Below are positions 2,205 to 56,379 of a stretch of DNA of 64,000 bases, in pieces (within the stretch, counting starts at the first letter, position 1; every line of letters begins with the position of its first letter). The notes under the pieces are model-generated. The model searched no databases. It saw nothing but the letters and a program-made list of their open reading frames with translations, and was not told the origin of the DNA. A program made the translations under genes and the position numbers. The stretch comes from a virus. Taxonomy: Duplodnaviria; Caudoviricetes. Location of the stretch: positions 10,331-74,330 of the IMG/VR virus record IMGVR_UViG_2671180604_000001, one strand, 5' to 3'.

Positions 2205-2386
2205 ATTTAAGGAGAAAATCCAAATAAAAAGTACAAAACAACTATTTCTTAAAGATGGTGGAAGTTTAATTTTTAATCAGTAATATTAATCTTTGTACAA
2301 AAATAAAAAATACAAAATAAATGTACATGTTTTAATTTAATTAAAATATAATATTAATAAATGATTTCTTGGTTTGGTTGTATAGT

Positions 2387-3529
2387 ATGGATATTTATGG
2401 TGAATTTTGTAATGTCTTAAGGCTTTGCTTAAATGGGCAACCTGAGGACATTCGTCTGTATTCTGCCAAATTAGTAAGAAAGTATCGTAAAGAAAATCCC
2501 GAATTTGCCGTAGAAATTGAAAAATTACTAAAGGCCACTCCTACAAGGTCTACAATCAATCCAATAGCAAGGGATTCAGGTGCCTTAGATAAAAAAATTA
2601 TAAAAAATGAATCTGAAGGCTTTTCTTTAAGTTCACCTGTAGATCAAGATACCTACTTATCACTTTTATCCAAAATTGAAACTAATGTTTCAGTATTACT
2701 TATGAATTCGAATTTAAAAAAGGAGCTTGATAATTTTATAAAGGAAAGAGAAAAAGCTAATATTTTAAAAGAATTTGATTTAAAGCCTCTTCAGTCAGCA
2801 ATTTTTATTGGCGAACCTGGTTTAGGTAAAACTCTTAGTGCCAAATATTTAGCACAAGAATTAGGTTTACCACTTTATAAGCTTGATTTAGCTACCATAA
2901 TGAGTAGTTATTTAGGCAAATCGGGAATAAATCTTAAAGCAGCATTCCAATTTGCTAAACAAAGTTCTTGTATATTATTTCTAGATGAAATTGATGCTGT
3001 TGCTAAAACACGGAATGATAGTAGTGATATTGGCGAGCTGAAAAGGGTTGTAACAGTAATTCTTCAAGAGCTTGATTCATGGAAATCTGAAAGCATTATT
3101 GTAGCTGCTACTAATCATCCAGAATTAATTGATCATGCAATTTGGCGCAGATTTGATACGGTAATTAAATTTGAACCACCGACAGGAGAAATGCTAAATA
3201 GAGCAATATCATTTTTTTCGAAGGAATCAAAATGCAAAATTGAAAAATATGAACCATTATTATGTGAATTATACAAAGGCAAATCTTTTGCTTATATTGA
3301 ATCTGAACTCGTAAAAATTAGAAAAACTTTGATTCTTAATGAGGATATTGAACAATACCTAGTTGATTATATTGCAAAATTAATTCAAAGTAATACTATT
3401 GATAAAAATGATCTCAAATTGATTGCCAAAAACTGTATAAAAAGTACAAAGTTGACAATTAATAAGGTATCAATCTTGACGGGATTGCATAGAAACACCT
3501 TAAAAAACTTAACTGAAGGTAGTGAATAA
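2387..3529 (+). CDS. AAA+ ATPase, IetA-like, with C-terminal HTH
   Basis: Walker A GEPGLGKT, Walker B ILFLDEID, RRFD arginine finger; directly upstream of an S8 protease. Confidence 0.85.
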   Translation: MDIYGEFCNVLRLCLNGQPEDIRLYSAKLVRKYRKENPEFAVEIEKLLKATPTRSTINPIARDSGALDKKIIKNESEGFSLSSPVDQDTYLSLLSKIETNVSVLLMNSNLKKELDNFIKEREKANILKEFDLKPLQSAIFIGEPGLGKTLSAKYLAQELGLPLYKLDLATIMSSYLGKSGINLKAAFQFAKQSSCILFLDEIDAVAKTRNDSSDIGELKRVVTVILQELDSWKSESIIVAATNHPELIDHAIWRRFDTVIKFEPPTGEMLNRAISFFSKESKCKIEKYEPLLCELYKGKSFAYIESELVKIRKTLILNEDIEQYLVDYIAKLIQSNTIDKNDLKLIAKNCIKSTKLTINKVSILTGLHRNTLKNLTEGSE

Positions 3530-3531
3530 TT

Positions 3532-5745
3532 ATGGCTAATTTTTTAATTGGTAGGGGTGAATTAATAACTGAAAAAATGGATCCGCCCAACAAATTTAGA
3601 CGCCCTGGTGATGAGGTTTATACCTTTTCAGCAGTTAAGAATAGAATTCTACCGAAGTTAGTAAAGATATCTGAAGGGATGGTTGACAGAAACTCTAGGG
3701 AGTTGCCGGGTAATCTGGATGTAATTAGAGTTGTTATGAATCCTAGTTACACTGCACGTTCGAACTTTCCTACAAGGTTTTTAAAAGAGGCCGGACTAAA
3801 CCCTATTGGAAGTAAAAATACAAGAATAAAGCCTGAAAAGTGGTCTAAAAAAAAACCTGTTGAAGAAACACTAACTACAGAAATTTTTGTATCTGGAACT
3901 AAAGATGTTCTTATTGAGTTGCCGAATTTTATTAAAAGCTTGGATGAAAATTCAAAAGTAGCTAAAGAATTTATTCATATAGAAGAAATTTCTGAAATTC
4001 TTCCAGAGGATAAAATCAAAAAAGGCGTTTTAGATAATCCTAAAGTAATGTTTTTTGAAATTGGACTTCATATCGATGATGACAAAGATCTCATTTATAA
4101 AAAGTTTAAAGAATTAGTAAATGAGTTGCAGGGTACTGTATATGATGATTGTGCTATCTATACAGGGTCATTATGTTTTGTGCCAATAAAAATTGATAAT
4201 AAAAAAATTCTAGATATTGCAAAATTTTCAATGGTAAGACTAATTAGGAATGTTTCATATTTAAGAGAGTTACAGCCCATTAGAAATATCACTTCAATTG
4301 GGGTGAAATGCGAATTACCCGAATTACCACCTTTATCAACTAAGCCAAAAGTTGCTATCCTTGATGGAGGAATACCACATAATCATATTTTAGAAAATTG
4401 GTTAACTAAAGTGCATTTAGGAGATGAGGAAGCGAATGATATTGCTGAGCTTAATCAACATGGTTTGGGGGTAACTTCAGCATTTTTATTTGGATCGCTA
4501 TTACCTAGAACAACCGCTTTACAACCATATTCGTATGTTCATCATATAAGAGTGTTAGATGATAAAACCGCTACAGATGATCCATTTGAGTTATATAGAA
4601 CATTAAAATTAATTCAGGATGTTTTGGTATCTAAAGCTTATGAGTTTATTAATTTAAGTCTAGGACCAAATCTGTGTGTAAGCGATGATGATGTTCATCC
4701 ATGGTCATCTGTAATTGATCAAGAATTAAGTGATGGTAAAACATTATTAACTGTTGCTGCTGGAAATAATGGGGAGTTAGATCCTAACTCAGGTAACAAT
4801 AGAATCCAAATACCTTCTGATTCTGTTAATTCGCTTGTTGTAGGTGCTTCAAATAGCAATAAGCCAAATTGGGAAAAAGCATGTTACAGTGCTGTAGGTC
4901 CTGGTCGCGTACCTGGAAGAGTAAAACCAGATGTAGTAGCTTTCGGAGGGGATGTTGATGAGTATTTTCACGTATTATCACCCGACAGCTCCTCAACGAT
5001 TGCTCCTACATGTGGAACTAGTTTCGCTGCACCTTTAGTACTTCGTCAAGCAGTTGGAATTAGATCAATTCTTGGGGAAGAAATTACACCAATAGCATTA
5101 AAGGCTCTACTAATTCATACCGCTAACACAAATGGACATAATCAAGATTTAGTTGGTTGGGGTAAGATTGAAAATAACATTTCAAAAATTATTCAATGTG
5201 AAGATGGTGAAGCACGGATTTTATATCAAGGTTATTTAGAACCAGGAAAGTATCTTAAAGCAAATATTCCATTACCAGAAACTGTAAAGGACGGAATTGT
5301 AGAAATTACAGCTTCTCTTTGTTTTGCTTGTGATGTAGATTCAGAACATTCATCAGCTTATACTCAATCAGGCTTAGAAATCACTTTTAGACCACACACA
5401 GACAAATTCAATAAAGCCGGCACGGCAATTGAAACAGCTCCATTTTTTAGTAATGGAGGTGCAAGCAATGAGCTTGAACGAAGACTCAAAGAGCACAAAT
5501 GGGAAACCGTTTTGCATAAAAAGAAAAACAAACAAGCAAGTTCGCTTAAGAATCCATTTTTTGAGATTCATCATATAGCTAGAGAGAATGCAACTTTACC
5601 TAAAAAACCTAAAGCAATTCCTTATGCTATGGTAATAACTGTTAAGTCTAGGAAAAACATGAATTTATACAATGATATTCTACAAACATATGTTAATAGA
5701 TTGTCACCATTAAAACCGAAAGTTGATATATCGATCAATTTATAA
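3532..5745 (+). CDS. S8 subtilisin-like serine protease, IetS-like
   Basis: Catalytic motifs AILDGG, HGLGV, AAGN, GTSFAAP; no signal peptide. Confidence 0.88.
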   Translation: MANFLIGRGELITEKMDPPNKFRRPGDEVYTFSAVKNRILPKLVKISEGMVDRNSRELPGNLDVIRVVMNPSYTARSNFPTRFLKEAGLNPIGSKNTRIKPEKWSKKKPVEETLTTEIFVSGTKDVLIELPNFIKSLDENSKVAKEFIHIEEISEILPEDKIKKGVLDNPKVMFFEIGLHIDDDKDLIYKKFKELVNELQGTVYDDCAIYTGSLCFVPIKIDNKKILDIAKFSMVRLIRNVSYLRELQPIRNITSIGVKCELPELPPLSTKPKVAILDGGIPHNHILENWLTKVHLGDEEANDIAELNQHGLGVTSAFLFGSLLPRTTALQPYSYVHHIRVLDDKTATDDPFELYRTLKLIQDVLVSKAYEFINLSLGPNLCVSDDDVHPWSSVIDQELSDGKTLLTVAAGNNGELDPNSGNNRIQIPSDSVNSLVVGASNSNKPNWEKACYSAVGPGRVPGRVKPDVVAFGGDVDEYFHVLSPDSSSTIAPTCGTSFAAPLVLRQAVGIRSILGEEITPIALKALLIHTANTNGHNQDLVGWGKIENNISKIIQCEDGEARILYQGYLEPGKYLKANIPLPETVKDGIVEITASLCFACDVDSEHSSAYTQSGLEITFRPHTDKFNKAGTAIETAPFFSNGGASNELERRLKEHKWETVLHKKKNKQASSLKNPFFEIHHIARENATLPKKPKAIPYAMVITVKSRKNMNLYNDILQTYVNRLSPLKPKVDISINL

Positions 5746-5922: not shown

Positions 5923-6834
5923 CTATTTTTCTGATTTTTTTGAAGTAGTAGACTTGTTTTTTTCTGAGCTTTCTAAGTGAGGGTTTTGTATAGTAATTTC
6001 CTTAATATCATAGGTTTTGATATTTCCTGAGCTATCAGTGACTGCACATATGCCTTTAACGCACAATGGTGTTAAAAAATAACTTGCCCCTGATTTATCC
6101 CCTTTAATTTGAACTTGCGGATATTTAATTGCTTTTGGTTTGTCACCATCTTTTTGCTTCAATTTCCCAGTAGAAACTTGGAAGTCAATTCGCGCTTGTT
6201 CTTCACCAGTATTTGCTAAATTTTCAGCTGTCTTGAACACATATAAAAAGAATACAAGGAATAAAATCATACCTAAATAGTGTAAAAGTGCTGAGACTTC
6301 AAATCTATTCGGGCTTTCATCATATTTCAAAGAAGCATCCATATCTATATGAGTCAGTGTCATTTGGTTCTTGTGAAGAAAATCATATGAACCTGCGTAT
6401 ATCCACTTAAAGGAACCTATAATAAAATTTATTCCTTTTTTGGGTGGATTTACAATTTTCTCAACTTTTTGAAAATCAATTTCTTCTTTGAAAAATTCAT
6501 AAATATTAATGATTAAGAACTTTAGTAGTACAAATACGGGGCGTACTGAAACAATTATTAAAGCTGTAAATATGTTAAGAAAGTAAAACCATTGACGGAG
6601 TGTTATTTTGGATATTAATGAAAAAATAATCATTAAAATAATGACATAAACGAAAACCTCAAATCCTCTTAACAAACCCTCCATAAGCATTAGAGATATT
6701 GGGAAATCAAAGGCATTTAATTTATAGTTAAAATAATAAGCATAGCCGTAGTTGTACCAGTAACCACACCAGAACAGAAGAATAGTAAAAACAGATGTTA
6801 TAAATGCCCAGTCAAAACGGATGTTTATTTTCAT
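5923..6834 (-). CDS. Hypothetical membrane protein (moron)
   Basis: 303-aa ORF with about 4 hydrophobic segments; AT-rich; opposite strand to neighbours. Confidence 0.7.
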   Translation of the reverse strand: MKINIRFDWAFITSVFTILLFWCGYWYNYGYAYYFNYKLNAFDFPISLMLMEGLLRGFEVFVYVIILMIIFSLISKITLRQWFYFLNIFTALIIVSVRPVFVLLKFLIINIYEFFKEEIDFQKVEKIVNPPKKGINFIIGSFKWIYAGSYDFLHKNQMTLTHIDMDASLKYDESPNRFEVSALLHYLGMILFLVFFLYVFKTAENLANTGEEQARIDFQVSTGKLKQKDGDKPKAIKYPQVQIKGDKSGASYFLTPLCVKGICAVTDSSGNIKTYDIKEITIQNPHLESSEKNKSTTSKKSEK

Positions 6835-6943: not shown

Positions 6944-7078
6944 TGTTCTTAAATTTTTATCTTAAAGCTCAAATATGTCTAATTATGCTCAAGATCAGAA
7001 ATTCCTTTATGAGCATATGTGCAACGAAATTTCACTCGTTTAGAAAAGTAAACCCAAATTCAGTGGAGTAGGAATAAA

Positions 7079-7423
7079 ATGCTAGAAAAATTTATTCAAT
7101 ATTGCCATTCAAAACGAGACGGCTTAAGTGATTACTACATCACTCAGACATATAAAAACATGCAAGAGTTGTTATATGTTCAGTTTTTAGAAGCAGAATT
7201 GCAGACTCAATTACAACTAAATGAAAGCTTGGAACAAAAGTTGAGTCAAGATAGTCAAATACTTCACAACATTATTGATATGGAAACCAGAAAAACTCAG
7301 AAATTGCAGAATCGAATCAATCATGTAATGAGTTTATTTGGTTGCCAGCAGGTAGTTAATCCAAACGATATTATTGAAGCTTTATCAGGTGATATAGATC
7401 AATCACTTTATGAGGTAGATTGA
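7079..7423 (+). CDS. Hypothetical phage protein (coiled coil)
   Basis: 114-aa ORF with RBS (TAGGA). Confidence 0.65.
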   Translation: MLEKFIQYCHSKRDGLSDYYITQTYKNMQELLYVQFLEAELQTQLQLNESLEQKLSQDSQILHNIIDMETRKTQKLQNRINHVMSLFGCQQVVNPNDIIEALSGDIDQSLYEVD

Positions 7424-7830
7424 AGATGATTAATGATATGAATCAATTTAGTGTGGGTGAGAAGGTGCTTTATATTGGTTTATGGGGTTCGGATTTTAAC
7501 TTAGTTGATGAAGTGGTAGGTATCGTTTGGGATGGTTTACTTCAGCGAAATAAGTATCTTATTAGAGACTCAGAATCAGGCACTGTAATTCAACAGTATG
7601 GCGATAACTATCGAATTGCTGATGCAGATGAAATTGCCATTGAGCATAGACTACGCTCTAACAATGGTAAGAATATATGTTCAAAAGGCGCACAAGAAAT
7701 TATGAAATCTGAATCCTTTATTGATTATCTACTTCAATGTGAGAAAGTCGTTAAACAGTGGCCTGAATGGAAAGTTAGTAGCTTAAGAGATGCTTTTGAC
7801 ATGAACCCCTTATCTAAAATGAATGGGTAG
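7420..7830 (+). CDS. Hypothetical phage protein
   Basis: 136-aa ORF overlapping the upstream stop; F.VGEKV SH3-like start. Confidence 0.6.
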   Translation: MKMINDMNQFSVGEKVLYIGLWGSDFNLVDEVVGIVWDGLLQRNKYLIRDSESGTVIQQYGDNYRIADADEIAIEHRLRSNNGKNICSKGAQEIMKSESFIDYLLQCEKVVKQWPEWKVSSLRDAFDMNPLSKMNG

Positions 7831-7894
7831 AATGACTTGTCTAATATTATTGATTTGATGTATATTTGATCAATTCAATAATTAGAGATATTTT

Positions 7895-8185
7895 ATGAAA
7901 ACACAAAACATGACATGGGATGCACTGTTGGTTTTAGTGCTTGTACTTGCATTTTCTTTCTCAGTGGTTTGGTCACTTTTTCCCATTTTTATGAAATTTG
8001 TAATGCCAATTTCTGAGATGATGATTTCGATAGCAGCACAGCATCATAGTGATCTTTTATTTGTAATTTTCACATTAATTCATATAGTAGTTGTAATGTC
8101 TTATCTTGTACTTTTACCATTTAAAGTTGCTCAAGCAATTATCGACAAGATTCTTATTTCAAGAACTAAAAATATTACAGCCTAA
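7895..8185 (+). CDS. Small 2-TM membrane protein
   Basis: Two hydrophobic segments. Confidence 0.55.
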   Translation: MKTQNMTWDALLVLVLVLAFSFSVVWSLFPIFMKFVMPISEMMISIAAQHHSDLLFVIFTLIHIVVVMSYLVLLPFKVAQAIIDKILISRTKNITA

Positions 8186-8197
8186 AATAATTTAGGT

Positions 8198-8237
8198 TGG
8201 AACAATCGCTTTTTTCAAATAGCTGTAATGTCAAAAT
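8198..8237 (+). promoter_or_regulatory. Putative late promoter
   Basis: TGGAAC-N29-AAAAT; hairpin 8233-8264 covers the RBS. Confidence 0.7.
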
Positions 8238-8267
8238 CATCCTATGTAAAAATAGGGTGATTTTTTT

Positions 8268-10328
8268 ATGTCTGAATTTAAGAGTGGTCTACAGTACGAC
8301 GAACTTGGTTTTTTAATAGGGCTAAAGCAATCAAGTCGTGACGTATCAAAAATAGATAAGAACGTGGAGCAAATCCGCGATATTTTACTTAGTTTAGGGA
8401 AAGAGATAGAGAGTCAGTACTCAAGAGCTGAGAACGAACCAAGACCAAAATTAAGCGCATTAGAACAAGCACTCATTGATGCCCAGATTAAACCAGCTGA
8501 TTTTTCTGATCTAATCCGTGAACAAGCAAATCCATTGGTTCAATCCTCATTAGCTTTAGATCGAGCTGCTAAATCAATTGAAGACTTGATAGCTGAATCA
8601 AGAAAATCTGACGATAACAATGCTCAACCTAAAGCAAAGCCTAAACGCCGTGCGATTGAAATTAATAGCACTGAAGACGTTATAAGAGAATTTGGTAATA
8701 ACGATCGCCAACGTGATGCAAACGGGCGATATGTTGGTTCTAGTTCCGAACAAACAACTTTGAGTAAAGTTACACAGACTATTGGGACCGCAATTAAGGG
8801 TGTATTACCTTCAAATCCACAGGGTGTTGACCCAACGCTTGACGCTATTAATGAAGTTGCGACTGTACTATCACCAGTGAAGCGAGCAGCTGGATTTATG
8901 CTGCGTCCGCTTACTGGTTGGATGAAGTCGCGAAAACGCAATGAACCATTGCCAAAAGAACAGAGTGACCATAATCGTAAGCTGATCAAAGTACTAGAAA
9001 AGATTGCTGCAAACAATGGAGGTGGATTATTTGGTCTATTGAAAATACTACCATTAGCATTAGCTGGCTTAGGTTCAACTGTGGCTGCTGCTGTTGCTGG
9101 TTTAGGACCAATTTTAGCAACCGCCCTTGCTGGTGCAGTTGGTGCTTATTTGGGTAGTAAAATTCATGATAAGTTAGATGAAACTGAAACTGGGCAAGCC
9201 GTTAATGAATTTATAGGTAATGCAGCAGCTCGAACTCTTGCTTCACTAGGTAATGATGCAGCGAAAGAAGTCGTAGAGGCACATGATAAAGCTGACGATG
9301 CCGAACGTTATAAGTCTAGAAAAGAAAATCCAGCATGGTACTCAAATGATGGCGTATATCGCTTTGCACGTAAACTTGGTGTCCAACGTTACATGAAAGA
9401 AAATACACCTGGTTCGATGCTCTACCAAAAACAATACGGTGGACAGGGTGTTAATGGTAATGAGGTAGCACAGTTTGGAGCTGCTGCAAGTTCAGGAAAA
9501 TTAGTTGGAAACAATACGGCTGAAAAAACTTTGGCTTTAATTCGTAAACATGAAGGTTACAAAGAAAAAGCATATTGGGATGTCAATGCCTATAGAGTTG
9601 GGTATGGAAGTGATACTTTGACTGATAAAAATGGAAAAATTACTTCTGTAAATAAAACTTCGACTACTGATAGGAAAGGTGCTGAAAGAGATTTAGTCCG
9701 CCGATCTAAAATATTTGCTAATGAAGCACGAGAAAAAGTCGGAGCGGAAAATTGGGATAAATTACCCGATGATACAAAGGCAGCCTTAACATCGGTTGCT
9801 TATAACTATGGTTCATTGCCGAAAAAAGTAGTGAAGGCAGTTCAAACAAATGATATCAGTCAAATTTCAGAATCTGTTCGAAGTTTAGAGTCTCACAATG
9901 ATGGGATCAATAAAAATCGTAGAAACGATGAAGCTAATATCATCAAGAACTCAATTATAAGAGAACCCAATAAATATGCAGATTCAAAAGGTAAAAGAAC
10001 AGAATCTCACCCAGAACAAAAAGTAACGCAAATTAGTAATGCTGCTGAACTTTTAAAGCAAAAATCTAAAATGAATCAGCCATTATTAAATTTAAAAACT
10101 CCAGTAACACCAACTGCTACTCGTACAAGTAATTTTGGATCGAGTTATATTCAACCAAAAACTGAAACTACAATCCAGCCTGCAAAAGAGTTTTTAACCT
10201 CACCGAAACCACAGGAAGTAGTTGTTAAGAATCAAAATAATGGTACTATCAATCAAAATGTGAGCAATCGATTGCTTGCTCATGCAATAACTGGCGGCTT
10301 AGGAATGGGGGATAAATGGAACGTTTAA
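8268..10328 (+). CDS. Tape measure / injection protein with lysozyme (GH24-like) domain
   Basis: Helical N-terminus, Gly/Ala-rich hydrophobic middle, IRKHEGY..KAYWD...VGYG and AALTSVAYNYG lysozyme motifs. Confidence 0.75.
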   Translation: MSEFKSGLQYDELGFLIGLKQSSRDVSKIDKNVEQIRDILLSLGKEIESQYSRAENEPRPKLSALEQALIDAQIKPADFSDLIREQANPLVQSSLALDRAAKSIEDLIAESRKSDDNNAQPKAKPKRRAIEINSTEDVIREFGNNDRQRDANGRYVGSSSEQTTLSKVTQTIGTAIKGVLPSNPQGVDPTLDAINEVATVLSPVKRAAGFMLRPLTGWMKSRKRNEPLPKEQSDHNRKLIKVLEKIAANNGGGLFGLLKILPLALAGLGSTVAAAVAGLGPILATALAGAVGAYLGSKIHDKLDETETGQAVNEFIGNAAARTLASLGNDAAKEVVEAHDKADDAERYKSRKENPAWYSNDGVYRFARKLGVQRYMKENTPGSMLYQKQYGGQGVNGNEVAQFGAAASSGKLVGNNTAEKTLALIRKHEGYKEKAYWDVNAYRVGYGSDTLTDKNGKITSVNKTSTTDRKGAERDLVRRSKIFANEAREKVGAENWDKLPDDTKAALTSVAYNYGSLPKKVVKAVQTNDISQISESVRSLESHNDGINKNRRNDEANIIKNSIIREPNKYADSKGKRTESHPEQKVTQISNAAELLKQKSKMNQPLLNLKTPVTPTATRTSNFGSSYIQPKTETTIQPAKEFLTSPKPQEVVVKNQNNGTINQNVSNRLLAHAITGGLGMGDKWNV

Positions 10329-10705
10329 TATTGTGTTTTTTATTCATATTTTTCAGCATTAATGTTCATGCAGATATGGTGGGATGTAAAGGATTATCAA
10401 AACAATCAGATTTGAATAATTGTGCTAATAATTTTTTAGCTAAAACCAATGAAAAGCTTAATAAAGTTTATTCAAATTATTTGTCTGACTTGACACCTGA
10501 TGAGCAATCCAAACTTAAAGAATCTCAAAAAATATGGGGGCAATTTAAAGATAAAGATTGTGCATTTGAATCTTCTCCAGTTAAGAAAGGTTCAATGTAT
10601 CCTTATGTTTTATCTTCGTGTTTAGTAAATCGTAATGAAATAAGAATAGTTGAGCTTGAGAATATGATGTCATGTAAAAACGGGACTGAGCCAAGCTGTA
10701 TATAA
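10316..10705 (+). CDS. lprI: Lysozyme inhibitor LprI family (DUF1311) secreted protein
   Basis: Signal peptide, C....Q.DLN.CA...L...Y...L..SQ..W..F...DC pattern. Confidence 0.8.
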   Translation: MERLILCFLFIFFSINVHADMVGCKGLSKQSDLNNCANNFLAKTNEKLNKVYSNYLSDLTPDEQSKLKESQKIWGQFKDKDCAFESSPVKKGSMYPYVLSSCLVNRNEIRIVELENMMSCKNGTEPSCI

Positions 10706-10707
10706 GT

Positions 10708-10776
10708 ATAGGCAATAAATTATTGGCTCATGCAATATCAGGTGGATTGGGTATGGGGGGGAAATGGAATGGTTAA
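10708..10776 (+). pseudogene. Orphan remnant of the tape-measure gene 3' end
   Basis: Translates IGNKLLAHAISGGLGMGGKWNG* versus VSNRLLAHAITGGLGMGDKWNV* at 10260-10328 (16/22 identical). Confidence 0.85.
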
Positions 10777-11062
10777 AAAAATAATATTTGCAGCAGTAAT
10801 TGTTTCACCAATAATTGCAGTACATGCAGGATTTTTTCCATCTAAGGATATCCAAAAGCTCATTGAAAAAGCAGAGATTCTAAATGATAAGTGTCGTGGC
10901 GGATCTGGTGATGATCCTAAAACTATGAAAGCGTGTGAGGAACGTGATAATTTGATTCTAAAAATTGAATCAAAGGGTTATTGTTGGGGTTCTATGAACA
11001 AAAATGTTTCCACTAATTTATATACCTGGATTCCTTGCAAGAAAGATGTCACAAGGAAATAA
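10769..11062 (+). CDS. Small secreted Cys-containing protein, putative orphan inhibitor/immunity protein
   Basis: Signal peptide MVKKIIFAAVIVSPIIAVHA, 4 Cys; start overlaps the remnant stop as lprI overlaps the tape-measure stop. Confidence 0.65.
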   Translation: MVKKIIFAAVIVSPIIAVHAGFFPSKDIQKLIEKAEILNDKCRGGSGDDPKTMKACEERDNLILKIESKGYCWGSMNKNVSTNLYTWIPCKKDVTRK

Positions 11063-11289
11063 AATATAACTTTAAGAGAGTTAATATCAATTTAAACTTT
11101 AAAAAAATTCATTTTGAAAAGTCTGTTAGATGCTTTTTTTAGAAAGTTTAGGAAAATTATTAAATATTATATAAGTACACTTTTTGAGATGAAATTAATA
11201 GAAATTCTATGAGGAATTTATAATTTATATAGACATATTTTAATGTTTTTAATAAAGTAGCGCATTACTTTCTGTAGCCCTTTGAGTTT

Positions 11290-12063
11290 ATGAAAAATTT
11301 TTATGCTTTCTTGGGGATGTCAATTGCATTAATTATTGAGCTTATCTTGATGACTATACTTGTTAAAAAAATACATCCTAAGTTTTCTATTCCTTTGATT
11401 GGATTAATCACTATTTTAATCTTAATAGCGCTTTCATTTTACTTTCCAAAACATGACTTTGTTGATAACTATCTCACGGTCAATGGTGCCGTTTTTACAA
11501 TGATTGGAGCTGTGTTTACAGTAATAAATACAATTATCGTGATTTATCTAATGATTTGGCTACATAAAAAAGATTCATCATTAGCTTTGATGTCACACTT
11601 TCATGAGTTACAAAAAGAATTGATTATCATTAATAAATTTTTTAAAAGTGAGTTGGAATACTTTGAAACCAAACAATCTGATCTATCAGAAAACCTATAT
11701 TTTATGAGCCATGAAGAAAGTGATCCAGAACATAAAGAATTATATCAACTTGAAATTAGTAATTTAAATACAGTAATTAAAAGTTACAAAGAAGTTTTTA
11801 CTCTGTTTATAGATTTTAGAGATAAATTAAAGTTAATCAAAGATGTTAACTTAACCAAAGTTCAGAAGCTTTCTACTGTTGTTAATTTACTTAATGAAAT
11901 TTTTGCCTTAAAAAGTCCTGAGGCTAGTTATAAAAAGAGTTATTCAGAAGGTGCTGATCTTGATGCAGATCCAAAAGAACAAATTAATGCAGCAAAAGAA
12001 TCAAGTTTGACTATTATAGGTGAATTGAACAATGTTTTTGAAGTAACAGTTGAGACTACATAA
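11290..12063 (+). CDS. Hypothetical membrane protein (3 TM + coiled coil)
   Basis: 257-aa AT-rich ORF. Confidence 0.7.
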   Translation: MKNFYAFLGMSIALIIELILMTILVKKIHPKFSIPLIGLITILILIALSFYFPKHDFVDNYLTVNGAVFTMIGAVFTVINTIIVIYLMIWLHKKDSSLALMSHFHELQKELIIINKFFKSELEYFETKQSDLSENLYFMSHEESDPEHKELYQLEISNLNTVIKSYKEVFTLFIDFRDKLKLIKDVNLTKVQKLSTVVNLLNEIFALKSPEASYKKSYSEGADLDADPKEQINAAKESSLTIIGELNNVFEVTVETT

Positions 12064-12103
12064 CTGAAGAATATTTACTTAATATTTTAATTTGGGGGGA
12101 TAT

Positions 12104-12721
12104 ATGGAAGAAGAACAAAAAGTTGATTCAGACAAATTTGAGTTTCTTTACGACTACAAGTGCTTACATTTGAGTATATTGAGAGATGATTACAAGGAGT
12201 TAGAAAATAAAGCAACTAAATACTTAACTTTTATTACTTTTGTATTGACAATTGTAACCTTTTTATTTCGTTCATATATCATAGAGCCGGATACCACCAA
12301 AGGGATATTATATTACTTATCGTTAGCCCTATTATTTATATACGTTATTTCTGTTTTTCCACCTTTGCGACAGTTGTTCTTATGCATAAAAATAAGTAAG
12401 TTAGGTGATTTACCTGTTGATGGAGTAAGGCAATACTTTCTCGATCATTCAAAGGAAACCGTCTATTTAGGAATGTCAGATAGATTGGACCAAATTATAG
12501 ATATATATAAGAAAATTAATTTGGAAAAAGCAGGTTATTTGAAAAATGCATTCAAAGAGATCAAAACCTGTTCAATCATATTTTTATTATTTATAATTAC
12601 TTTTTTTTTAAACATACTCATAAATCATCCTGATGAAACCAAAAACTCAGACCGAGACTCAGAAACCACCCAAAGAACCACAACCACAACCGCCTTATCA
12701 CCCAGCTCCAGAGATAGGTAA
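12104..12721 (+). CDS. 3-TM membrane protein resembling Pycsar-effector-type domains
   Basis: LENKATKYL-TM-TM...N..K...L..A-TM topology. Confidence 0.5.
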   Translation: MEEEQKVDSDKFEFLYDYKCLHLSILRDDYKELENKATKYLTFITFVLTIVTFLFRSYIIEPDTTKGILYYLSLALLFIYVISVFPPLRQLFLCIKISKLGDLPVDGVRQYFLDHSKETVYLGMSDRLDQIIDIYKKINLEKAGYLKNAFKEIKTCSIIFLLFIITFFLNILINHPDETKNSDRDSETTQRTTTTTALSPSSRDR

Positions 12722-12779
12722 AAGGGTAGGTAGTTTAGATAAACCAAGAGATAAAGGTATTAGAAATGAATACAAATAA
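12633..12779 (+). CDS. Putative 48-aa proline-rich peptide (not in ORF track)
   Basis: MKPKTQTETQKPPKEPQPQPPYHPAPEIGKRVGSLDKPRDKGIRNEYK*. Confidence 0.35.
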   Translation: MKPKTQTETQKPPKEPQPQPPYHPAPEIGKRVGSLDKPRDKGIRNEYK

Positions 12780-12852
12780 CCCCAAACCACCAGCTCCGCC
12801 AGAAGTACCTGCACCAAATATTTCTTACGAAGAAAAAAGTGTAAAGCGCTAA
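12766..12852 (+). CDS. Putative 28-aa proline-rich peptide (not in ORF track)
   Basis: MNTNNPKPPAPPEVPAPNISYEEKSVKR*, AAAGG upstream. Confidence 0.4.
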   Translation: MNTNNPKPPAPPEVPAPNISYEEKSVKR

Positions 12853-12863
12853 TTTCCTTTCAT

Positions 12864-12889
12864 ACAAAGTCTTGTATACAAGACTTTGT
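12864..12889. terminator. Perfect 26-bp palindrome (terminator or operator)
   Basis: ACAAAGTCTTGTATACAAGACTTTGT. Confidence 0.55.
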
Positions 12890-12941
12890 TTATTCTCAAT
12901 TTTAATAGTATCAATTTTACAAAAATATTTCGAATATCTTT

Positions 12942-13280
12942 ATGAAAACAAAAATCTTACTTCTAACCATTCTTACTACTGGTCTTGTTGGTTGTGATAA
13001 ACAACCTGAACCGAAGCCAACTAAGAGTGAAATACAATCACAATATGATGTTGCTGATCAAAAAATCGAAAAGTTCCTTGATGTGTTAGATGATCCTAAT
13101 GCTGATAAAGAACAGCAGACAAAGATACTTTGTGAGGACTATCCTAAAGTATATGAATTGGATTACATGCCAGCTTTATTGAAAATTTCTCCTCAAGATT
13201 ATACAAAGGAAAAACTACTATCTGATTTCAAAGTGGCATCCGATTATTACAAAGAAAAGTTAGGGATTAAATGTAGCTAA
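12942..13280 (+). CDS. Lipoprotein
   Basis: Signal peptide with lipobox LVGC. Confidence 0.8.
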   Translation: MKTKILLLTILTTGLVGCDKQPEPKPTKSEIQSQYDVADQKIEKFLDVLDDPNADKEQQTKILCEDYPKVYELDYMPALLKISPQDYTKEKLLSDFKVASDYYKEKLGIKCS

Positions 13281-17652: not shown

Positions 17653-18018
17653 ATGTATCTTAACTATCAATCTGTTATCGTCGATATTTTCATTATTACT
17701 TCATTCATTTTGCACGTATATCTTGCATTTGGCAGTATTAAAACAATGTCTGGCCCTTTATCGGCTTTATTAAATAAGGGTGTAACGGATGTTATTTATA
17801 AGAAAGTAAAACGATTGATTTTTGGTTTGTCCTTTCTTTGTCTTTCCCTTACTTGTCTTGTTACTTGGCGAAGCTATGAATTGCTTTTATTCCTGAATGT
17901 GAATGGTTATGGACTTTATATTCTTTTAGCTACTTTTCTTCTGTATAGCTTTGCAATTTTAGCAGCTTTTACTTTCTGTAAATTGTTGCTGATGACAGCA
18001 CAAAGGTCAGGCTTATGA
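17653..18018 (+). CDS. 3-TM membrane protein
   Basis: Three hydrophobic segments; GGAG RBS. Confidence 0.7.
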   Translation: MYLNYQSVIVDIFIITSFILHVYLAFGSIKTMSGPLSALLNKGVTDVIYKKVKRLIFGLSFLCLSLTCLVTWRSYELLLFLNVNGYGLYILLATFLLYSFAILAAFTFCKLLLMTAQRSGL

Positions 18019-25246: not shown

Positions 25247-27235
25247 ATGGCTCTAAAACCACTTAAAGATATCCCCGAATGGTGGGAACTTTGCGCACGT
25301 TATCGTTATGATATCTATGCCTTTGCAGTAGAGGCTTTAGGTGTTACACCGACTTGGCAGCAAGAACTACTATTTGAGTCAATCCAGTTTGATGGTAGCC
25401 GTACATCGGTTGCATCTGGGCATGGTTGCTTTGGTAAAGGTACGAAAATCCGTTTAGCCAACGGGAAGTGGAAACGTGTTGAAAAAATAACAATAAATGA
25501 TGCAGTAATGGGAACAGATGGCTTTTCACCGCGAGAAGTGATCAAAGTTGTACAGGGATACCAAGAGCTATATCAATTTGAATATGCCAATGGTTCAAAG
25601 CATGTCTATAACAAATCTCACATTCTTTGTTTAGTCTCACTCGAAACAAAAAACGGTTGGAAAGCTGGCGATACCATTGAAGTCCTGGTATCGAAATACC
25701 TTGAATGGCCTGAAGAAACCAAGTGCCAATTTGCAGCATATGAACTGAAACATAGAAAATTCCAGCCTGTAAAAATTAATAGCGTCACAGCCTTGGGAGA
25801 GGGTGATTATTACGGCTTTGTCCTCGATGGTGATGCAACTTTTCTAACAGCTGATGGCATGGTTCACCATAACACTGGTAAAACTGCATCGGCTGGTATC
25901 GTTGCTTTATGGCATCTATTGTTCTTTGTTGAATCCATTACGATGTTCACTGCTCCGCAAATCGGGCAGTTAAAGAAACAAGTCTGGAAAGAAATCAGTA
26001 TTAACCTGTCACGTCTAAAAGCTGGACCATTGGGATGGCTTGCTGATTATATCGGTTATCAGTCTGAATTAGTCTATATCAAAGGCTATAAAGAAAAGTG
26101 GTATGTCTTTGCAAAAACAGCACCTAAGCACCAGCCAACGAACTTGGCAGGGAACCATGCAGATAATTACTTGCTATGGGGTGATGAGGCAAGTGGTATT
26201 CCTGATGAGGTTATGGATGTTGTCCTAGGTGCTTTGACGCATGAAGATAACAGAGCTGTTTTAACTTCACAGCCGACACGTAACGCAGGATTATTCTATG
26301 AGACACATCATAAATTAAGTCACAGAGCCGGTGGTATTTGGATTGCTTTAACGTTCAATGGAGAAGAATCTCCATTAGTAAGTAAGCAATCATTAGAAGA
26401 ACAACGTCAGAAATACGGTAGCCGTGACGATCCTCAATACCAAATCCGTGTTTTAGGTCGCTTTCCAGACCGTGCTGATGAGTTCTTAATCACGAAACGA
26501 CAATCCGAAGAAATGTATGTCGGTGCATCGATTTTCGAAGAACACGTTTTTGGTTATGTGATTACAGTCGATGTAGGCGGTGGCGTTGGGCGAGATGATT
26601 CTGTAATTGCTGTATCGAAAGTTTGGGGTGAAGCTCAATGGGGAGATCGAGCACGCCGTGTTGAAGTTGTTGATATTCCACTTTGTAAGAATAGAGATGA
26701 CATCACAGAGCTTTTTGCCAAGATTAATGAATGCATTTTGAAATATCCTAATGCAACTTTGGTTGTTGATGATAATGGCGCTGGTAAAGGTTTAGGACAA
26801 CTGCTTAAGAAACATGGTATTTGGTTTATGCCTGTTTATTGGGGAGGTGCATGCTTCAATAATGACAATCGTAAAGAGTATGTAAATAAACGTGCCTTGG
26901 CTTATGTTTGTCTTAAACGTGCAATTGAATCGGGTCGTTTCAAAGTTAAAACGAAAAAATTCTTAGTCAAGATTCAAGATCAAATAATCAAGATCCCTTA
27001 TACATTTGATGAGCACAGCCGTTACAAGATTCTAAGTAAAGATGAAATGAAGCGGAAAGGGATTAAATCTCCCGATCTTGGTGACGTTTTCGCATTCTTA
27101 TTCTTAGAAAATGTGTTCTATACAGAAGCATATGAGAATGTTGTTATTGCAGATGATAGTCCAGAAGCACAGGAACGGGCAGAGCGTAAATCTAGGTTTG
27201 ATCAACTTAAAGAAGCAGCAAAGAACATTGATTGA
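25247..27235 (+). CDS. Terminase large subunit containing an intein
   Basis: Walker A SGHG/TGKT split by intein, Walker B WGDEASG, nuclease VDVGGG..RDDS and KSPDLGD. Confidence 0.92.
   Translation: MALKPLKDIPEWWELCARYRYDIYAFAVEALGVTPTWQQELLFESIQFDGSRTSVASGHGCFGKGTKIRLANGKWKRVEKITINDAVMGTDGFSPREVIKVVQGYQELYQFEYANGSKHVYNKSHILCLVSLETKNGWKAGDTIEVLVSKYLEWPEETKCQFAAYELKHRKFQPVKINSVTALGEGDYYGFVLDGDATFLTADGMVHHNTGKTASAGIVALWHLLFFVESITMFTAPQIGQLKKQVWKEISINLSRLKAGPLGWLADYIGYQSELVYIKGYKEKWYVFAKTAPKHQPTNLAGNHADNYLLWGDEASGIPDEVMDVVLGALTHEDNRAVLTSQPTRNAGLFYETHHKLSHRAGGIWIALTFNGEESPLVSKQSLEEQRQKYGSRDDPQYQIRVLGRFPDRADEFLITKRQSEEMYVGASIFEEHVFGYVITVDVGGGVGRDDSVIAVSKVWGEAQWGDRARRVEVVDIPLCKNRDDITELFAKINECILKYPNATLVVDDNGAGKGLGQLLKKHGIWFMPVYWGGACFNNDNRKEYVNKRALAYVCLKRAIESGRFKVKTKKFLVKIQDQIIKIPYTFDEHSRYKILSKDEMKRKGIKSPDLGDVFAFLFLENVFYTEAYENVVIADDSPEAQERAERKSRFDQLKEAAKNID
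25427..25873 (+). mobile_element. Mini-intein (149 aa, no homing endonuclease)
   Basis: Starts CFGKGT.I.LANG, ends YYGF.LDG...FL.ADG.V.HN, followed by Thr. Confidence 0.92.
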
Positions 27236-47419: not shown

Positions 47420-50248
47420 ATGAAGAAGATCGATAATATTTCCAAATATACGGATGTTTTGGCTGCTATTGATTCAATGGTTACAGCATTAGGCAATCAA
47501 GTCATTGTTGAGTGGGATGGTGAACAGGAGAGTAAAATATATCAGGAATATTTAGATAATCTTGATCAATATGATGGTAAATCAATTACAGCATCAAAGG
47601 CTTATTTTAATGAGCATTTAAATGGAAAGTTGATTAAAACCAAAATTGGTTTAGTTCGTATTAACTCTAAATCTCGTGGAAAAATTCATGACCGTATGCG
47701 AGATGCAAAGTATCTTGCATTACCTTATATTCCAGAAGTTTTGATGACGGGTGATGTAAGTGATTTAGTACCGCTAAATAAAGATCGTGATGATAGTGCG
47801 GTAGGTTACTATGTATTTAATAAATTAAAGGAATTGGAAAATTACAGTCTGAATATTACATTAAAAGTGGCTTTGGATTCTGATGGGAATTTATTGTATT
47901 ACTTAGGAGCAGCAAAAGAAAAAGCCAACTTACGGACTGTCTCACAGGTCATTAACCCCACAGGCTCTAAAGCTGGCTTTGATTCTATTGAATCATATGA
48001 TGATGATGAAATCAATCTATATGTACAAGTTTTAGACAAAAACGGTAATGTACTGGCAGAGGATGATGCTGAAAAATTAATATGGGGAGATAGTCCAAAA
48101 GCTGCATCTTTAATTCTTAAAGGCAGATTAAACAACGTCAAAACAGCTAAAGGCACTAAGGTATCAACAGTATTTGCAGTATTGGAAGTTGATAAGGTTA
48201 TTGCCTCACATACTGCAACTGGCAGCGAAAATCCTAATTATCCTCAAGAACTACAACCACGAGATCGTAGTCGAGAGTCTTCTCAAGCGTGGGTGCAAAA
48301 AACTTCAAATACTTTAGATCCAGAAAGCTTGGGACGTTCAGGTCGTGCAGATACGGGTGCGCCTATTGTCGGTGATGATTTGGTAGTTGAGTCTGGTAAT
48401 GGCCGTACTATGGCAATCCAGCTTGCATATGAGCGCGGAAATGCTGATGAGTACAAAGAATGGTTGATTGATGAAGCAGAATATTTTGGCTTTAGTGCGG
48501 ATCAAATCAACCAATTTAAACAGCCTATCCTTGTGCGTATTCGTACCTCTGAAATTGATCGTATTCAATTCACAGTAGAAGCCAATCAAGATGATAAGTT
48601 GTCCTTTAGTGCTACTGAACGAGCAAAAACAGATGCAAGACGATTAGATGAGAACCTATTGTCACTGTTTACACCTGGTGAAGATGGCGACCTAATCACT
48701 GCAAGTAATCAGAAGTTTATCCAAGGATTTTTAAAGTCTTTAGGTGAAACGGAAGCAGCTCAATATATCGGGACAGATGGAAAGCCAACACAAGCATTAG
48801 TCACACGTATGAAAGCTGCAATATTCAGCAAAGCTTATAATGATGACCGACTTCTTGAAATGATGGCAGACCAAACAAAACCAGACTTGCAAAATATGCT
48901 AAATGCACTGGGAGCAGCTGCTCCAAAATTTATTGAAGCGCAATCTGTCAGCCGTGGTGACGTGCAGGATGTATCAAGTTCTATCGTTGATGGTATTGAG
49001 CAAGCACTTGATAAGCGAGTGACAAATGCAATTATTGATGCAGCGAATACGATCTTGGCAGCAAAGCAAAATGATCAAGATATTGTTGAATTTGTAAAAC
49101 AACAGGGGTTATTTGGTGATCTAGGCGAAGGCGTGCCAGAGCTTGCAGTATTCTTATCTAAGAATAGTCGCAGCGCCAAAAAGATGAGTTTGCTATTCAA
49201 AGCAATGGCAGAGTTTGCAGAAAAAGAAGCGATTGATGGGAAAAACATGGGGCTTTTTGGTGAACCTGAACCTGTCAACATCAAAGATGCAATCAATTAC
49301 GCCGTGAAAGTGATTGAGGATAATTATGGTGATAATGCCAATCTGAGCATGTTTGATTCTATTGATTCACTTACGACAATAGATGAAAAAGCACATGATG
49401 CAGCTACATCACCTCATAATGATTTAGACTTTCCAACAGCAGAACAAAAGCAAACTGGTGAATACCCAAAAGGGCAATTATCAATTGGTGATTTACAGAT
49501 TGCAATTGAGAATCCAGCAGGTTCAACGCGCTCTGGTGTTGACCCCAATGGAAATGATTGGGAAATCAAACTTTGTCATCATTATGGATACATAGAGAAT
49601 ACTACTGGTGCCGATGGTGACGAAATTGATGTATTTGTTAAGAATCATCTAGAGCATGTACCAGAGTTCGCTTATATCATCAATCAGCTAAATTTAGATG
49701 GTACTTTTGACGAACAGAAAGTGATTTTAGGAGCTGAGACAGAAGAAGAAGCCAAAGCGATCTATATGTCTAATTATTCTGAGAGGTGGCAGGGTTTTGG
49801 CGGAATCAAAAAGATTTCAATGAAGGAACTACTTACTAAGATTCAGCATACGTGGTCTGAGTTTGATTCTTGGGTAATGGATGGAAATTATGAGCATATT
49901 CCAGTTGATAAAATCAATATGGAAAATGCCCCTAAGATTCATGAAAGTAATATTAGTAAAGAAGATCCAATTGTAGTAATAGAAAAGAATGGGACATACT
50001 TTCTTGTTGCTGGCTTAGAACGCATTGCGTTTGCAAAACAAAGAAGTGAAAAACTCATTCCAGCGATCATTTTTGATGATAAAGAAGTGAAAACATCAAT
50101 TATTCAAAAAGCTATTAAAAAAGCAGGTTCAAGCGTGGACCCTGTTGCATTGGCTGCGCTTATTGTTGATGAATTAGATAAAAGTGTATTGAAAGAATTC
50201 GATGATATTTCAAATACAGTATTAGACTTCCTACATAGATTTGAGTGA
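47420..50248 (+). CDS. Polyvalent protein: LPD3-like + DdrB-ParB + inorganic-pyrophosphatase-like + ParB-like domains
   Basis: QPRDR, GAPIV...VESGNGR (DdrB-ParB); IEN..GS.RSG...YGYI..T.GADGD.IDVF (InPase); PIVV...LVAG.ER. Confidence 0.8.
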   Translation: MKKIDNISKYTDVLAAIDSMVTALGNQVIVEWDGEQESKIYQEYLDNLDQYDGKSITASKAYFNEHLNGKLIKTKIGLVRINSKSRGKIHDRMRDAKYLALPYIPEVLMTGDVSDLVPLNKDRDDSAVGYYVFNKLKELENYSLNITLKVALDSDGNLLYYLGAAKEKANLRTVSQVINPTGSKAGFDSIESYDDDEINLYVQVLDKNGNVLAEDDAEKLIWGDSPKAASLILKGRLNNVKTAKGTKVSTVFAVLEVDKVIASHTATGSENPNYPQELQPRDRSRESSQAWVQKTSNTLDPESLGRSGRADTGAPIVGDDLVVESGNGRTMAIQLAYERGNADEYKEWLIDEAEYFGFSADQINQFKQPILVRIRTSEIDRIQFTVEANQDDKLSFSATERAKTDARRLDENLLSLFTPGEDGDLITASNQKFIQGFLKSLGETEAAQYIGTDGKPTQALVTRMKAAIFSKAYNDDRLLEMMADQTKPDLQNMLNALGAAAPKFIEAQSVSRGDVQDVSSSIVDGIEQALDKRVTNAIIDAANTILAAKQNDQDIVEFVKQQGLFGDLGEGVPELAVFLSKNSRSAKKMSLLFKAMAEFAEKEAIDGKNMGLFGEPEPVNIKDAINYAVKVIEDNYGDNANLSMFDSIDSLTTIDEKAHDAATSPHNDLDFPTAEQKQTGEYPKGQLSIGDLQIAIENPAGSTRSGVDPNGNDWEIKLCHHYGYIENTTGADGDEIDVFVKNHLEHVPEFAYIINQLNLDGTFDEQKVILGAETEEEAKAIYMSNYSERWQGFGGIKKISMKELLTKIQHTWSEFDSWVMDGNYEHIPVDKINMENAPKIHESNISKEDPIVVIEKNGTYFLVAGLERIAFAKQRSEKLIPAIIFDDKEVKTSIIQKAIKKAGSSVDPVALAALIVDELDKSVLKEFDDISNTVLDFLHRFE

Positions 50249-55363: not shown

Positions 55364-55759
55364 ATGGCTGAACCAGTAAGCAGTGGGGTCGGTGCAGCAG
55401 CGTTAGTAAAGTTATACGGTTTGATCACCATTTTGGCTGTAGCTGCTTTTCTTTCGTATTTGATTGTTGTAATGACTCGTGAGCCTCGATCCCGAAAAGA
55501 ATGGGTCATTTCATTAGTCACGACTTTAGTTGGAAGCATTGCAGGTGGTTCACTTGTTGTTCAGCGATTTGGGCTACATGACTGGTCATCAAACTGGTTC
55601 GGCATGTGTGCACTGGGTGGAATCATCTTTTCATGTGGATTGCCATTTTGGGCAATTGTGCGCTGGACTTTTAACTACATTAATTCGCATGAAGGTTCAA
55701 CGATTATTGATGTTTTCAAAGAAGTTAAAAAAGAAGTAAAAGGGGGTAATGAAGAATGA
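55364..55759 (+). CDS. Holin
   Basis: 3 TM segments, charged C-terminus, overlaps the endolysin start. Confidence 0.75.
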   Translation: MAEPVSSGVGAAALVKLYGLITILAVAAFLSYLIVVMTREPRSRKEWVISLVTTLVGSIAGGSLVVQRFGLHDWSSNWFGMCALGGIIFSCGLPFWAIVRWTFNYINSHEGSTIIDVFKEVKKEVKGGNEE

Positions 55760-56379
55760 GTATCGATCAATCTCAACAAATAGCACAAGCATTTTCATGG
55801 CTTCGCGCAATGTCAGGCGGAAAACTTACTCAAGATCAAGTTGAGGCAGGTGATGCGGTTATTGCAGTAAATGGCCTTACAACATTTGCAAAACTAATTG
55901 GTTTTACACTAGATGCTCGAATTAATAATGGGAAATTTGATATTTCAGAGAATGGATATCAATTAATACGCGAATTTGAAGGGTTTCGAGCTCAAGCTTA
56001 TCTAGATACCGGTGGGGTTTGGACCATTGGATACGGAACAATTAAATATCCAAATGGTGTACGAGTTAAAAAGGGTGATACATGTACACAAGGTCAAGCA
56101 GAGGTTTGGCTCAAAAATGATTGTGCCTGGGTTGATGCTTGTCTTGATAAATATGTTAAAGCAACTATTAATCAAAACCAATTCGATGCTTTAGCCTCTT
56201 TTGTATATAACGTTGGAGAATCTGCATTTATAAAAAGTACGATGCTTACCTTTATCAATAAAGGTGAACTTCAGAATTCAGCAACACAATTTGATCGTTG
56301 GATTTTTGATAATGGGAAAAAAATAGATGGTTTAGCTAACCGTCGTGCTAAAGAGAAGGCTTTATTTCTAAAAAAGTAA
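55756..56379 (+). CDS. Endolysin, GH24 lysozyme
   Basis: EFEG...AY.D..GVWTIGYG, NQFDAL.SF.YNVG, GL.NRR..E. Confidence 0.93.
   Translation: MSIDQSQQIAQAFSWLRAMSGGKLTQDQVEAGDAVIAVNGLTTFAKLIGFTLDARINNGKFDISENGYQLIREFEGFRAQAYLDTGGVWTIGYGTIKYPNGVRVKKGDTCTQGQAEVWLKNDCAWVDACLDKYVKATINQNQFDALASFVYNVGESAFIKSTMLTFINKGELQNSATQFDRWIFDNGKKIDGLANRRAKEKALFLKK

Follow-up and report, generated by a model that had tools for sequence, protein, structure and literature searches.

The stretch of DNA analysed here (the window) is the final 64,000 nucleotides (nt) of the 74,330-bp virus record IMGVR_UViG_2671180604_000001. Its positions 8268-11062 hold four elements in close succession: the gene of a putative tail-ruler protein with an internal GH24 lysozyme domain, the gene of a small secreted LprI-family protein, a short relic of the 3′ end of another ruler allele, and the gene of a second small secreted protein, named Cys97 below. 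The host element is an Acinetobacter prophage, and the window proteins match P1-like myophage families (PmgG-like, DarB-like, DdrA-like, Hdf-like, sheath, tube, portal and baseplate). An earlier note on this DNA had singled out the same four elements and read them as a polymorphic array of injection enzymes and immunity genes. All four are confirmed, at or a few bases off the positions that it gave.

The ruler gene (8268-10328, plus strand) encodes a Sit-like, tape-measure-like injection protein of 686 amino acids (aa). From the N- to the C-terminus, it is formed by a conserved N-terminal part, a Gly/Ala-rich membrane-like stretch, the GH24 cassette and a conserved C-terminal tail. The N-terminal part is covered by a match to phrog_6922 (1.2e-108), and the tail, of ~95 residues (10041-10325, plus strand), is delimited by alignments and by a C-tail profile and ends in LLAHAITGGLGMGDKWNV. 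The last Gly codons of this tail make up the G-rich stretch for ribosome binding and contain the start codon of the gene that follows. The exchangeable peptidoglycan-hydrolase cassette (residues 427-543; 9546-9896, plus strand) matches PF00959 (Phage_lysozyme) with 28.5 bits for a cut-off of 22.3, in agreement with the lysozyme domain that the earlier note had placed in the tape-measure gene; homologues reach 34-36 bits, and a tblastn search matched the lysozyme parts of many annotated tape-measure proteins. In the T4 lysozyme pattern, the catalytic Glu and Asp stand nine residues apart and a Thr (Thr26) follows six residues further. In a 28-sequence alignment of the ruler GH24 subfamily, E429 and D438 are invariant, and the Thr-equivalent position is an invariant Arg (R443). 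The phage possesses its own endolysin (55756-56379, plus strand), which is also GH24-like and keeps the E..D..T pattern; its similarity to the ruler domain is remote, with 35% identity over 34 aa only.

The LprI/DUF1311-family gene (10316-10705, plus strand; phrog_4895) encodes a secreted protein of 129 aa that matches PF07007 with 61.9 bits against a cut-off of 22. Its ATG overlaps the ruler stop by 13 nt, and the overlap of the ruler gene with a secreted LprI-family gene described earlier is therefore real. The protein starts with a hydrophobic leader ending VHA/D, a predicted export signal; here and below, signal peptides were called by eye and by a simple script rule, not by a trained predictor. 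Cysteines C24, C36 and C102 are invariant among nine sequences. Among solved chains, 3gi7 comes closest (E 2.5e-5), itself a DUF1311 protein of unknown function. The structure model of LprI is too poor (predicted local distance difference test, pLDDT, 59.3), and a fold search of the PDB with this low-quality model returned nothing at E<=0.001. Word-based homologue searches were shallow and yielded 6 proteins for LprI and 4 for Cys97.

Beyond the LprI stop codon (10703-10705), positions 10712-10776 (plus strand) hold the relic, formed by the last ~21 codons and the stop of a different ruler allele. Positions 10714-10776 read NKLLAHAISGGLGMGGKWNG followed by a stop, while the ruler's own end reads NRLLAHAITGGLGMGDKWNV and a stop, with 16 of 20 residues identical. 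Stop included, 10 of the 21 codons are identical, 7 differ synonymously and 4 non-synonymously, which places the origin of the copy in a separately evolved functional allele and not in a local duplication. The diverged copy of the ruler end that had been reported at 10708-10776, with 16 of 22 identical residues and synonymous differences, is thereby borne out. Profiles of the C tail match a 28-aa piece of the relic frame at E 1.6e-10 and 1.7e-8, far beyond chance. Moreover, 10712-10989 is collinear with positions 6159-6436 of a related locus, L002, where a ruler 3′ end (6159-6223, the counterpart of the relic) is followed by a Cys97 gene (80.6% identity over 278 nt, E 7e-70). This collinearity indicates that the relic and Cys97 are the former end of the locus.

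Cys97 itself (10769-11062, plus strand) is a 97-aa secreted protein with four Cys that matches the C-terminal part of phrog_25984 (2.6e-22). Its start ATG at 10769 (MVKKIIF...) lies inside the relic and overlaps the relic stop by 8 nt (ATGGTTAA); its hydrophobic leader is predicted to end VHA/G. The second secreted Cys protein of the earlier note and its overlap with the relic stop are thus real, but the start given by the ORF (open reading frame) finder, 10730, is wrong: the corresponding 110-aa version was rejected, its first 13 residues being the relic read in another frame. Cys97 belongs to a widespread family of ~70-aa domains without a Pfam model (740 representative clusters at E<=1e-3). 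The domain stands alone or forms the C-terminal end of a 273-aa lipoprotein, and PF07007 is also present in 3 of 21 hand-picked longer Cys97-domain proteins. The Cys97 model (pLDDT 71.6) displays two helices and a β hairpin and found no match in the PDB at E<=0.001; in a profile comparison of Cys97 with LprI, the signal peptides alone align. At both junctions of the array, the Gly codons of ..GLGMG.. place a G-rich run a few bases ahead of the ATG. The relic thus now serves as leader and ribosome-binding region of the Cys97 gene; as the last ruler codons double as a ribosome-binding region, the relic would have to stay for the displaced gene to work.

Relatives of the ruler were gathered from viral contigs, species genomes and metagenomes. 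The C-tail profile retained 147 full-length rows among 165 scanned sequences, corresponding to 88 distinct loci; L numbers in this text denote related loci. The alignment exhibits conserved N- and C-terminal parts of ~470 and ~100 aa, the latter ending LAHA[IL]TGG[LI]G, with a variable stretch of ~200 aa between them. The variable stretch falls into 10 clusters among the 88 loci. The cassettes that could be named are GH24, two PF18013 (Phage_lysozyme2) clusters, PF21277 (VgrG3-like_C), SLT, and double enzymes of CHAP and PF18013; the unnamed types B, C, D and E match PHROGs labelled endolysin, tail lysozyme, baseplate hub or transglycosylase. More distant Sit-like proteins with the same C tail are found in L075 (1104-3587), L094 (1239-3602), L123 (1035-3626), L085 (744-3602) and L153 (506-2614). 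These five carry the VgrG3-like C-terminal domain of type VI secretion systems (T6SS; PF21277 in L075 and L094), CHAP with Phage_lysozyme2, or SLT, from which it follows that the pools of ruler cassettes and of type VI effector domains overlap. The window ruler gene is itself a mosaic: 8232-8980 is 83-84% identical to L002 and L014 and the C tail 74-81%, while between these ends (8980-10080) the Gly/Ala-rich membrane stretch and the cassette are unrelated to those of the two loci and are ~45 residues shorter than in most relatives.

Pairs of near-identical loci delineate the units of exchange. L002 and L014 share 96.2% identity over the 2,833 nt that end at the stop codon, past which they are unrelated, and the same holds for L003 and L059 (95.2% over 3,115 nt). 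L002 and L059, for their part, are 93% and 90% identical on the two flanks of a ~600-nt gap that comprises the enzyme cassette alone. The earlier note had proposed that the hydrolase and its cognate inhibitor are swapped together. The cassette is indeed polymorphic and the downstream genes are exchangeable, but in these three pairs the swaps are independent of each other. Whether or not the partners are inhibitors, this locus offers a clean natural case of recombination at the level of domains within a virion protein, its junctions being exact.

Which genes stand behind the ruler? In 60 of the 88 distinct loci, the gene that follows has a signal-peptide-like start and begins at most 20 nt from the ruler stop, often inside the last codons. 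Such a gene lies further off in 5 loci; 16 have a gene without a signal-peptide-like start, and 7 have no gene. The downstream genes form 26 clusters, most of them without a Pfam or PHROG name. LprI stands behind GH24 in 8 of the 9 distinct GH24 loci, over three backbone clusters (L004/L009, L018 and the A. baumannii/ABMM1-type L055 being examples). A protein of 351 aa is found only behind the PF18013 cluster V1 (11 of 11), always on one backbone. Another family, FamC (116 aa), is behind cassette type C in 3 of its 4 loci. In the fourth, L034 (2768-3200), the FamC gene follows a PF18013-type ruler and is frameshifted after ..DTKKE, continuing in another frame; it is a displaced partner gene in decay, if not the product of a sequencing error. 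The Cys97 family occurs directly behind ruler genes in L002, L011, L017 and L059, among others.

The link between cassette and partner was evaluated by shuffling 42 unique (backbone, cassette, partner) triples, taken from rows long enough for backbone assignment and with 11 partner clusters lacking export signals counted as 'none'. Concordant cross-backbone pairs numbered 8, compared with 3.28 +/- 1.70 in 20,000 shuffles that ignore relatedness, and the share of shuffles reaching 8 was 0.018. The GH24-LprI linkage persists through N-part identities of 48-69%, while near-identical phages (95-96% DNA identity) differ in their downstream genes. When cassettes are tabulated against downstream genes, as the earlier note had suggested, the coupling of LprI with GH24 stands out, whereas Cys97 behind five cassette clusters and LprI twice behind PF18013 do not follow it. 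The association is partial, not strict.

Arrays with a displaced gene recur. The locus L019 is reciprocal to the window: behind its type C ruler come FamC, another secreted protein, a relic of ~118 nt and an intact LprI gene (7391-7780). This relic (7281-7400, ..GGLGQDKWGA and a stop) resembles the GH24-type tail of L009. Two more relics, in L042 and L049, are located in bacterial genomes without an obvious partner gene. The orphan fragment and gene array is accordingly not unique to the window, although the relics hold no enzyme fragment, unlike the classical orphan toxin modules to which the earlier note had likened it. Contigs of public runs from other samples bridge the array (X5 record 22, 10539-10838; X14 record 13, 10700-10901). 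Over 8826-10740, a lake-water contig tracks the window, with 56 differences, before diverging inside the relic, and a small contig parts from the window at 10332, just past the ruler stop; both breakpoints fit the junctions found in the loci.

Several pieces of evidence suggest that the 686-aa protein is probably the tape measure in the P1 sense. Its position and the absence of a better ORF make it the best Sit-like candidate, in line with the earlier annotation: no ORF of at least 600 aa with a better tape-measure claim was found across the 74-kb record. The P1 gene order is sit-pmgA-bplA; in the window, the ruler gene is followed by an inserted island, by the gene at 18015 (phrog_4683) and by a baseplate protein gene at 18322 (phrog_1369), an order that matches that of the P1 tail and baseplate genes. 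P1 Sit was found in virions, is assigned as the tape measure and has an SLT domain near its C-terminal end, according to the available text of PMC9024508. Variable parts of ruler homologues match PHROGs labelled tape measure, and the A. baumannii homologues carry the NCBI pipeline name 'tail tape measure protein'. For phage ABMM1, the 762-aa homologue would span ~114 nm at ~1.5 Å per residue, a figure that concerns this homologue only and includes a globular enzyme domain; its tail is described as ~118 nm long in the part of PMC10345192 at hand. At the sequence level, P1 Sit is matched twice in BLASTP, weakly and in collinear order (E 0.007 and 0.036), the hhalign profile comparison is unconvincing (probability 21.7%), and the Pfam scan of the ruler matched no tape-measure family. 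Both proteins share a long N-terminal part, a peptidoglycan hydrolase and a C-terminal region, and they occupy the same position relative to the pmgA/bplA-like genes of a P1-like gene set. They differ in that P1 Sit has 1140 aa and SLT, as compared to 686 aa and GH24 in the window, homology between them not being established, and in that pmgA comes next in P1, where the window has a secreted-protein gene.

Allele-matched periplasmic inhibitors that block virion hydrolases and thereby confer exclusion are the best single explanation of these observations, one that we regard as evenly poised between right and wrong; the interpretation of the earlier note is partly supported overall. Binding, inhibition, timing of expression and exclusion are what this proposal adds to the observed architecture, polymorphism, coupling, relics and partial association. 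The Sit-like ruler of 686 aa would be ejected at infection, its conserved N-terminal part and C tail of ~100 aa would fit it into the tail and baseplate, and the exchangeable cassette, here GH24, would open the wall of the next host. The gene starting in the last ruler codons would give rise to a Sec-exported periplasmic protein, LprI in the present case. Partners such as LprI would bind and block the hydrolases carried by the virions of incoming phages, or by progeny that neighbouring cells release, with an exclusion of the T4 Spackle kind as the outcome. Recombination replaces the alleles, its junctions falling at the borders of the cassette and at the stop codon. In the window, one event may have placed GH24, the C tail and LprI ahead of the old locus, of which the last 65 nt of the ruler gene, needed as a ribosome-binding leader, and an intact Cys97 would have remained as an 'orphan'.

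The case for inhibitors is built on the tight coupling and the export signals, on the partial association with the cassette, on the T6SS neighbours of PF07007 and on the precedent of T4 Spackle, with the PF07007 domain in some longer Cys97-domain proteins as an additional hint. LprI-domain proteins with signal peptides, encoded downstream of lysozyme-like T6SS effectors, are predicted to be immunity proteins in the portions of PMC9796082 and PMC12135965 available. T4 Spackle is periplasmic and inhibits the tail lysozyme gp5 while having no such effect on the T4 endolysin, as stated in the accessible part of PMC7677548. By analogy, a Spackle-like selectivity would be needed here, since the phage endolysin is also GH24-like. 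A broader extension, which we put forward tentatively and with less confidence than the inhibitor proposal itself, is that temperate myophages of Acinetobacter and other Proteobacteria may be engaged in an effector-immunity-style arms race, with hydrolase alleles from the domain pool of type VI effectors, one or more exported inhibitors per phage that would neutralise particular alleles of rival or sibling virions and would include unnamed families such as Cys97 and FamC, and orphans that would widen the exclusion spectrum.

Several points weigh against the inhibitor proposal. The earlier note took as established that LprI proteins inhibit lysozymes. For the PF07007 domain this is not so, judging from the available text of PMC7933661: there is no direct proof that this domain is a lysozyme inhibitor, M. 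tuberculosis LprI carries an MliC domain too, and no role in lysozyme resistance was seen for the PF07007 protein ScwA. The chemistry of the ruler GH24 domain may differ from that of T4 lysozyme, because an invariant Arg takes the position of Thr26. The loci without a downstream gene or without a signal-like start imply that the partner is dispensable. The ninth GH24 locus carries a 305-aa TonB_C protein in place of LprI, LprI is also found behind a PF18013 cassette in L159 and L160, and the 22 distinct Cys97-domain loci are spread over five cassette clusters (V0 16, V1 3, V3 1, V4 1, V5 1). In the GH24 carriers, the N-terminal part, the cassette, the C tail and LprI diverge in parallel. With enzyme-partner pairs and the whole gene diverging together, vertical linkage can account for part of the association, and the shuffle test ignores such relatedness among loci. 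The junctions of the near-identical pairs make the cassette and the downstream gene separate units of exchange. Finally, the partner is coupled in translation to a structural gene of the late phase, which speaks against its expression in the lysogen.

Part of this evidence would equally suit a recombination scar at a cargo hotspot, in which the ruler 3′ end is a homology anchor at the edge of an accessory region, while the secreted genes (unrelated cargo) and the relic (debris) have nothing to do with the hydrolase. Next to the ruler gene lies a variable island (10.3-17.6 kb) that is empty in L007 and L013 and holds a toxin-antitoxin-like pair in L010; the junctions lie exactly at the stop codon, Cys97 occurs behind five cassette clusters, and the association can be vertical in part. 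Cargo, however, usually brings its own start signals, which fits poorly with 60 of 88 loci starting a signal-like gene within 20 nt of the ruler stop. Neither would mere cargo be expected to keep GH24 and LprI together on three diverged backbones while close relatives swap their downstream genes, and the PF07007 family is independently tied to lysozyme-like effectors (PMC9796082, in the text available). We therefore consider the cargo explanation doubtful, though the strongest of the competitors.

Lysogenic conversion is a different possibility: the secreted proteins would be orphan immunity proteins against the T6SS hydrolase effectors of neighbouring bacteria, captured together with the enzyme domains. 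The effector domains of the cassette pool (PF21277 VgrG3-like_C in L075 and L094, CHAP, lysozyme-like) are in keeping with it, as is the prediction, in the accessible parts of PMC9796082 and PMC12135965, that LprI-domain proteins are T6SS immunity proteins also occurring as orphan arrays. Yet coupling to a late virion gene would be odd for a gene that protects the lysogen, and most partner families lack known immunity relatives, which renders this explanation unlikely. More unlikely still is self-immunity, whereby a Gly-zipper membrane segment would leak the enzyme into the periplasm of the producing cell before assembly and a co-translated inhibitor would avert premature lysis. The overlap of start with stop codons implies that the two genes are expressed together at comparable levels, homologues display Gly-zipper-like stretches with weak Pfam and NCBIfam matches, and the endolysin is only remotely similar to the ruler domain, so that a selective inhibitor would leave lysis unblocked. 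Loci without a partner or with a mismatched one nevertheless exist and look intact, and orphan partners of absent enzymes are kept intact in the window and in L019.

As regards the surroundings of the array, the accessory island on the 3′ side of the ruler gene encodes membrane proteins, a lipoprotein, a hydrolase, a dehydrogenase and an AraC regulator. Its segment 13681-16799 is cellular-type cargo: an α/β hydrolase and a short-chain dehydrogenase on the minus strand, and an AraC-family regulator. Directly upstream of the ruler gene, 7895-8185 (plus strand) encodes a small multi-pass membrane protein of 96 aa, of which L055 has an 88-aa counterpart (483-749), the gene being present on both backbones. 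A 662-aa protein (25247-27235, plus strand) combines matches to PHROGs of the terminase large subunit with a Hom_end-associated Hint domain (PF05203, residues 61-128), probably an intein within the terminase gene. At 2369-5745 (plus strand), an AAA ATPase (386 aa) directly precedes an S8 subtilase (737 aa), both in phage PHROG families without an assigned function; the pair is a candidate two-gene defence or counter-defence module. The 942-aa DarB-like protein (47420-50248, plus strand) also matches, over residues ~650-810, 'endolysin' and virion-protein PHROGs and may carry a second virion-borne wall-active domain. A DNA search of 7000-11300 against phage and plasmid records gave no match, a protein search of plasmids gave 6 records, none with at least 80% query coverage, and the promoter and terminator scan of 7000-13000 was uninformative (19 promoter-like sites for 26.2 expected).

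If the partners are inhibitors, they would represent a second exclusion mechanism directed at tail lysozymes, besides T4 Spackle, and a modular one, as well as several new families of peptidoglycan-hydrolase inhibitors. Phage entry enzymes would then be tied to the domain pool of bacterial type VI weapons, and strain-specific plating failures among Acinetobacter prophage carriers, of relevance to the choice of therapy phages, would find an explanation.

Among known systems, T4 Spackle and gp5 are the closest parallel: in the available text of PMC7677548, a small periplasmic phage protein acts on a tail-borne GH24-type lysozyme, and in both cases a selective inhibitor, a presumed one here, would have to spare the phage's own endolysin. 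Spackle is, however, an early gene, unlinked to gene 5 and of one conserved family, whereas the candidates of the window type are coupled to a late ruler gene, come from many families with no relation to one another and can be exchanged; the Pfam search found nothing connecting LprI or Cys97 to Spackle. With the T6SS hcp/vgrG/PAAR, contact-dependent inhibition (CDI) and Rhs loci, the array shares a conserved delivery part, a variable enzyme and a small signal-peptide gene directly downstream. Displaced genes are likewise kept behind a fragment of the conserved region, and VgrG3-like_C and LprI are common to both (PMC9796082, in the part available). In contrast to those loci, a virion protein and not a secreted toxin acts as carrier, the variable part lies inside it with a conserved C tail after it, the relics consist of C-tail codons only, and the enzyme and partner recombine independently, the partner being dispensable. 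The tape measures of TM4 and of T5 (Pb2) likewise harbor a wall-degrading module inside the ruler protein (PMC9024508, PMC1796659), and the accessible parts of these reports describe no coupled secreted partner genes or relic arrays. A limited literature search retrieved a T6SS review but no paper on coupled inhibitors of tape-measure hydrolases. On the proposed reading, the locus would be a variant on T4 Spackle and on effector-immunity arrays, not a new category.

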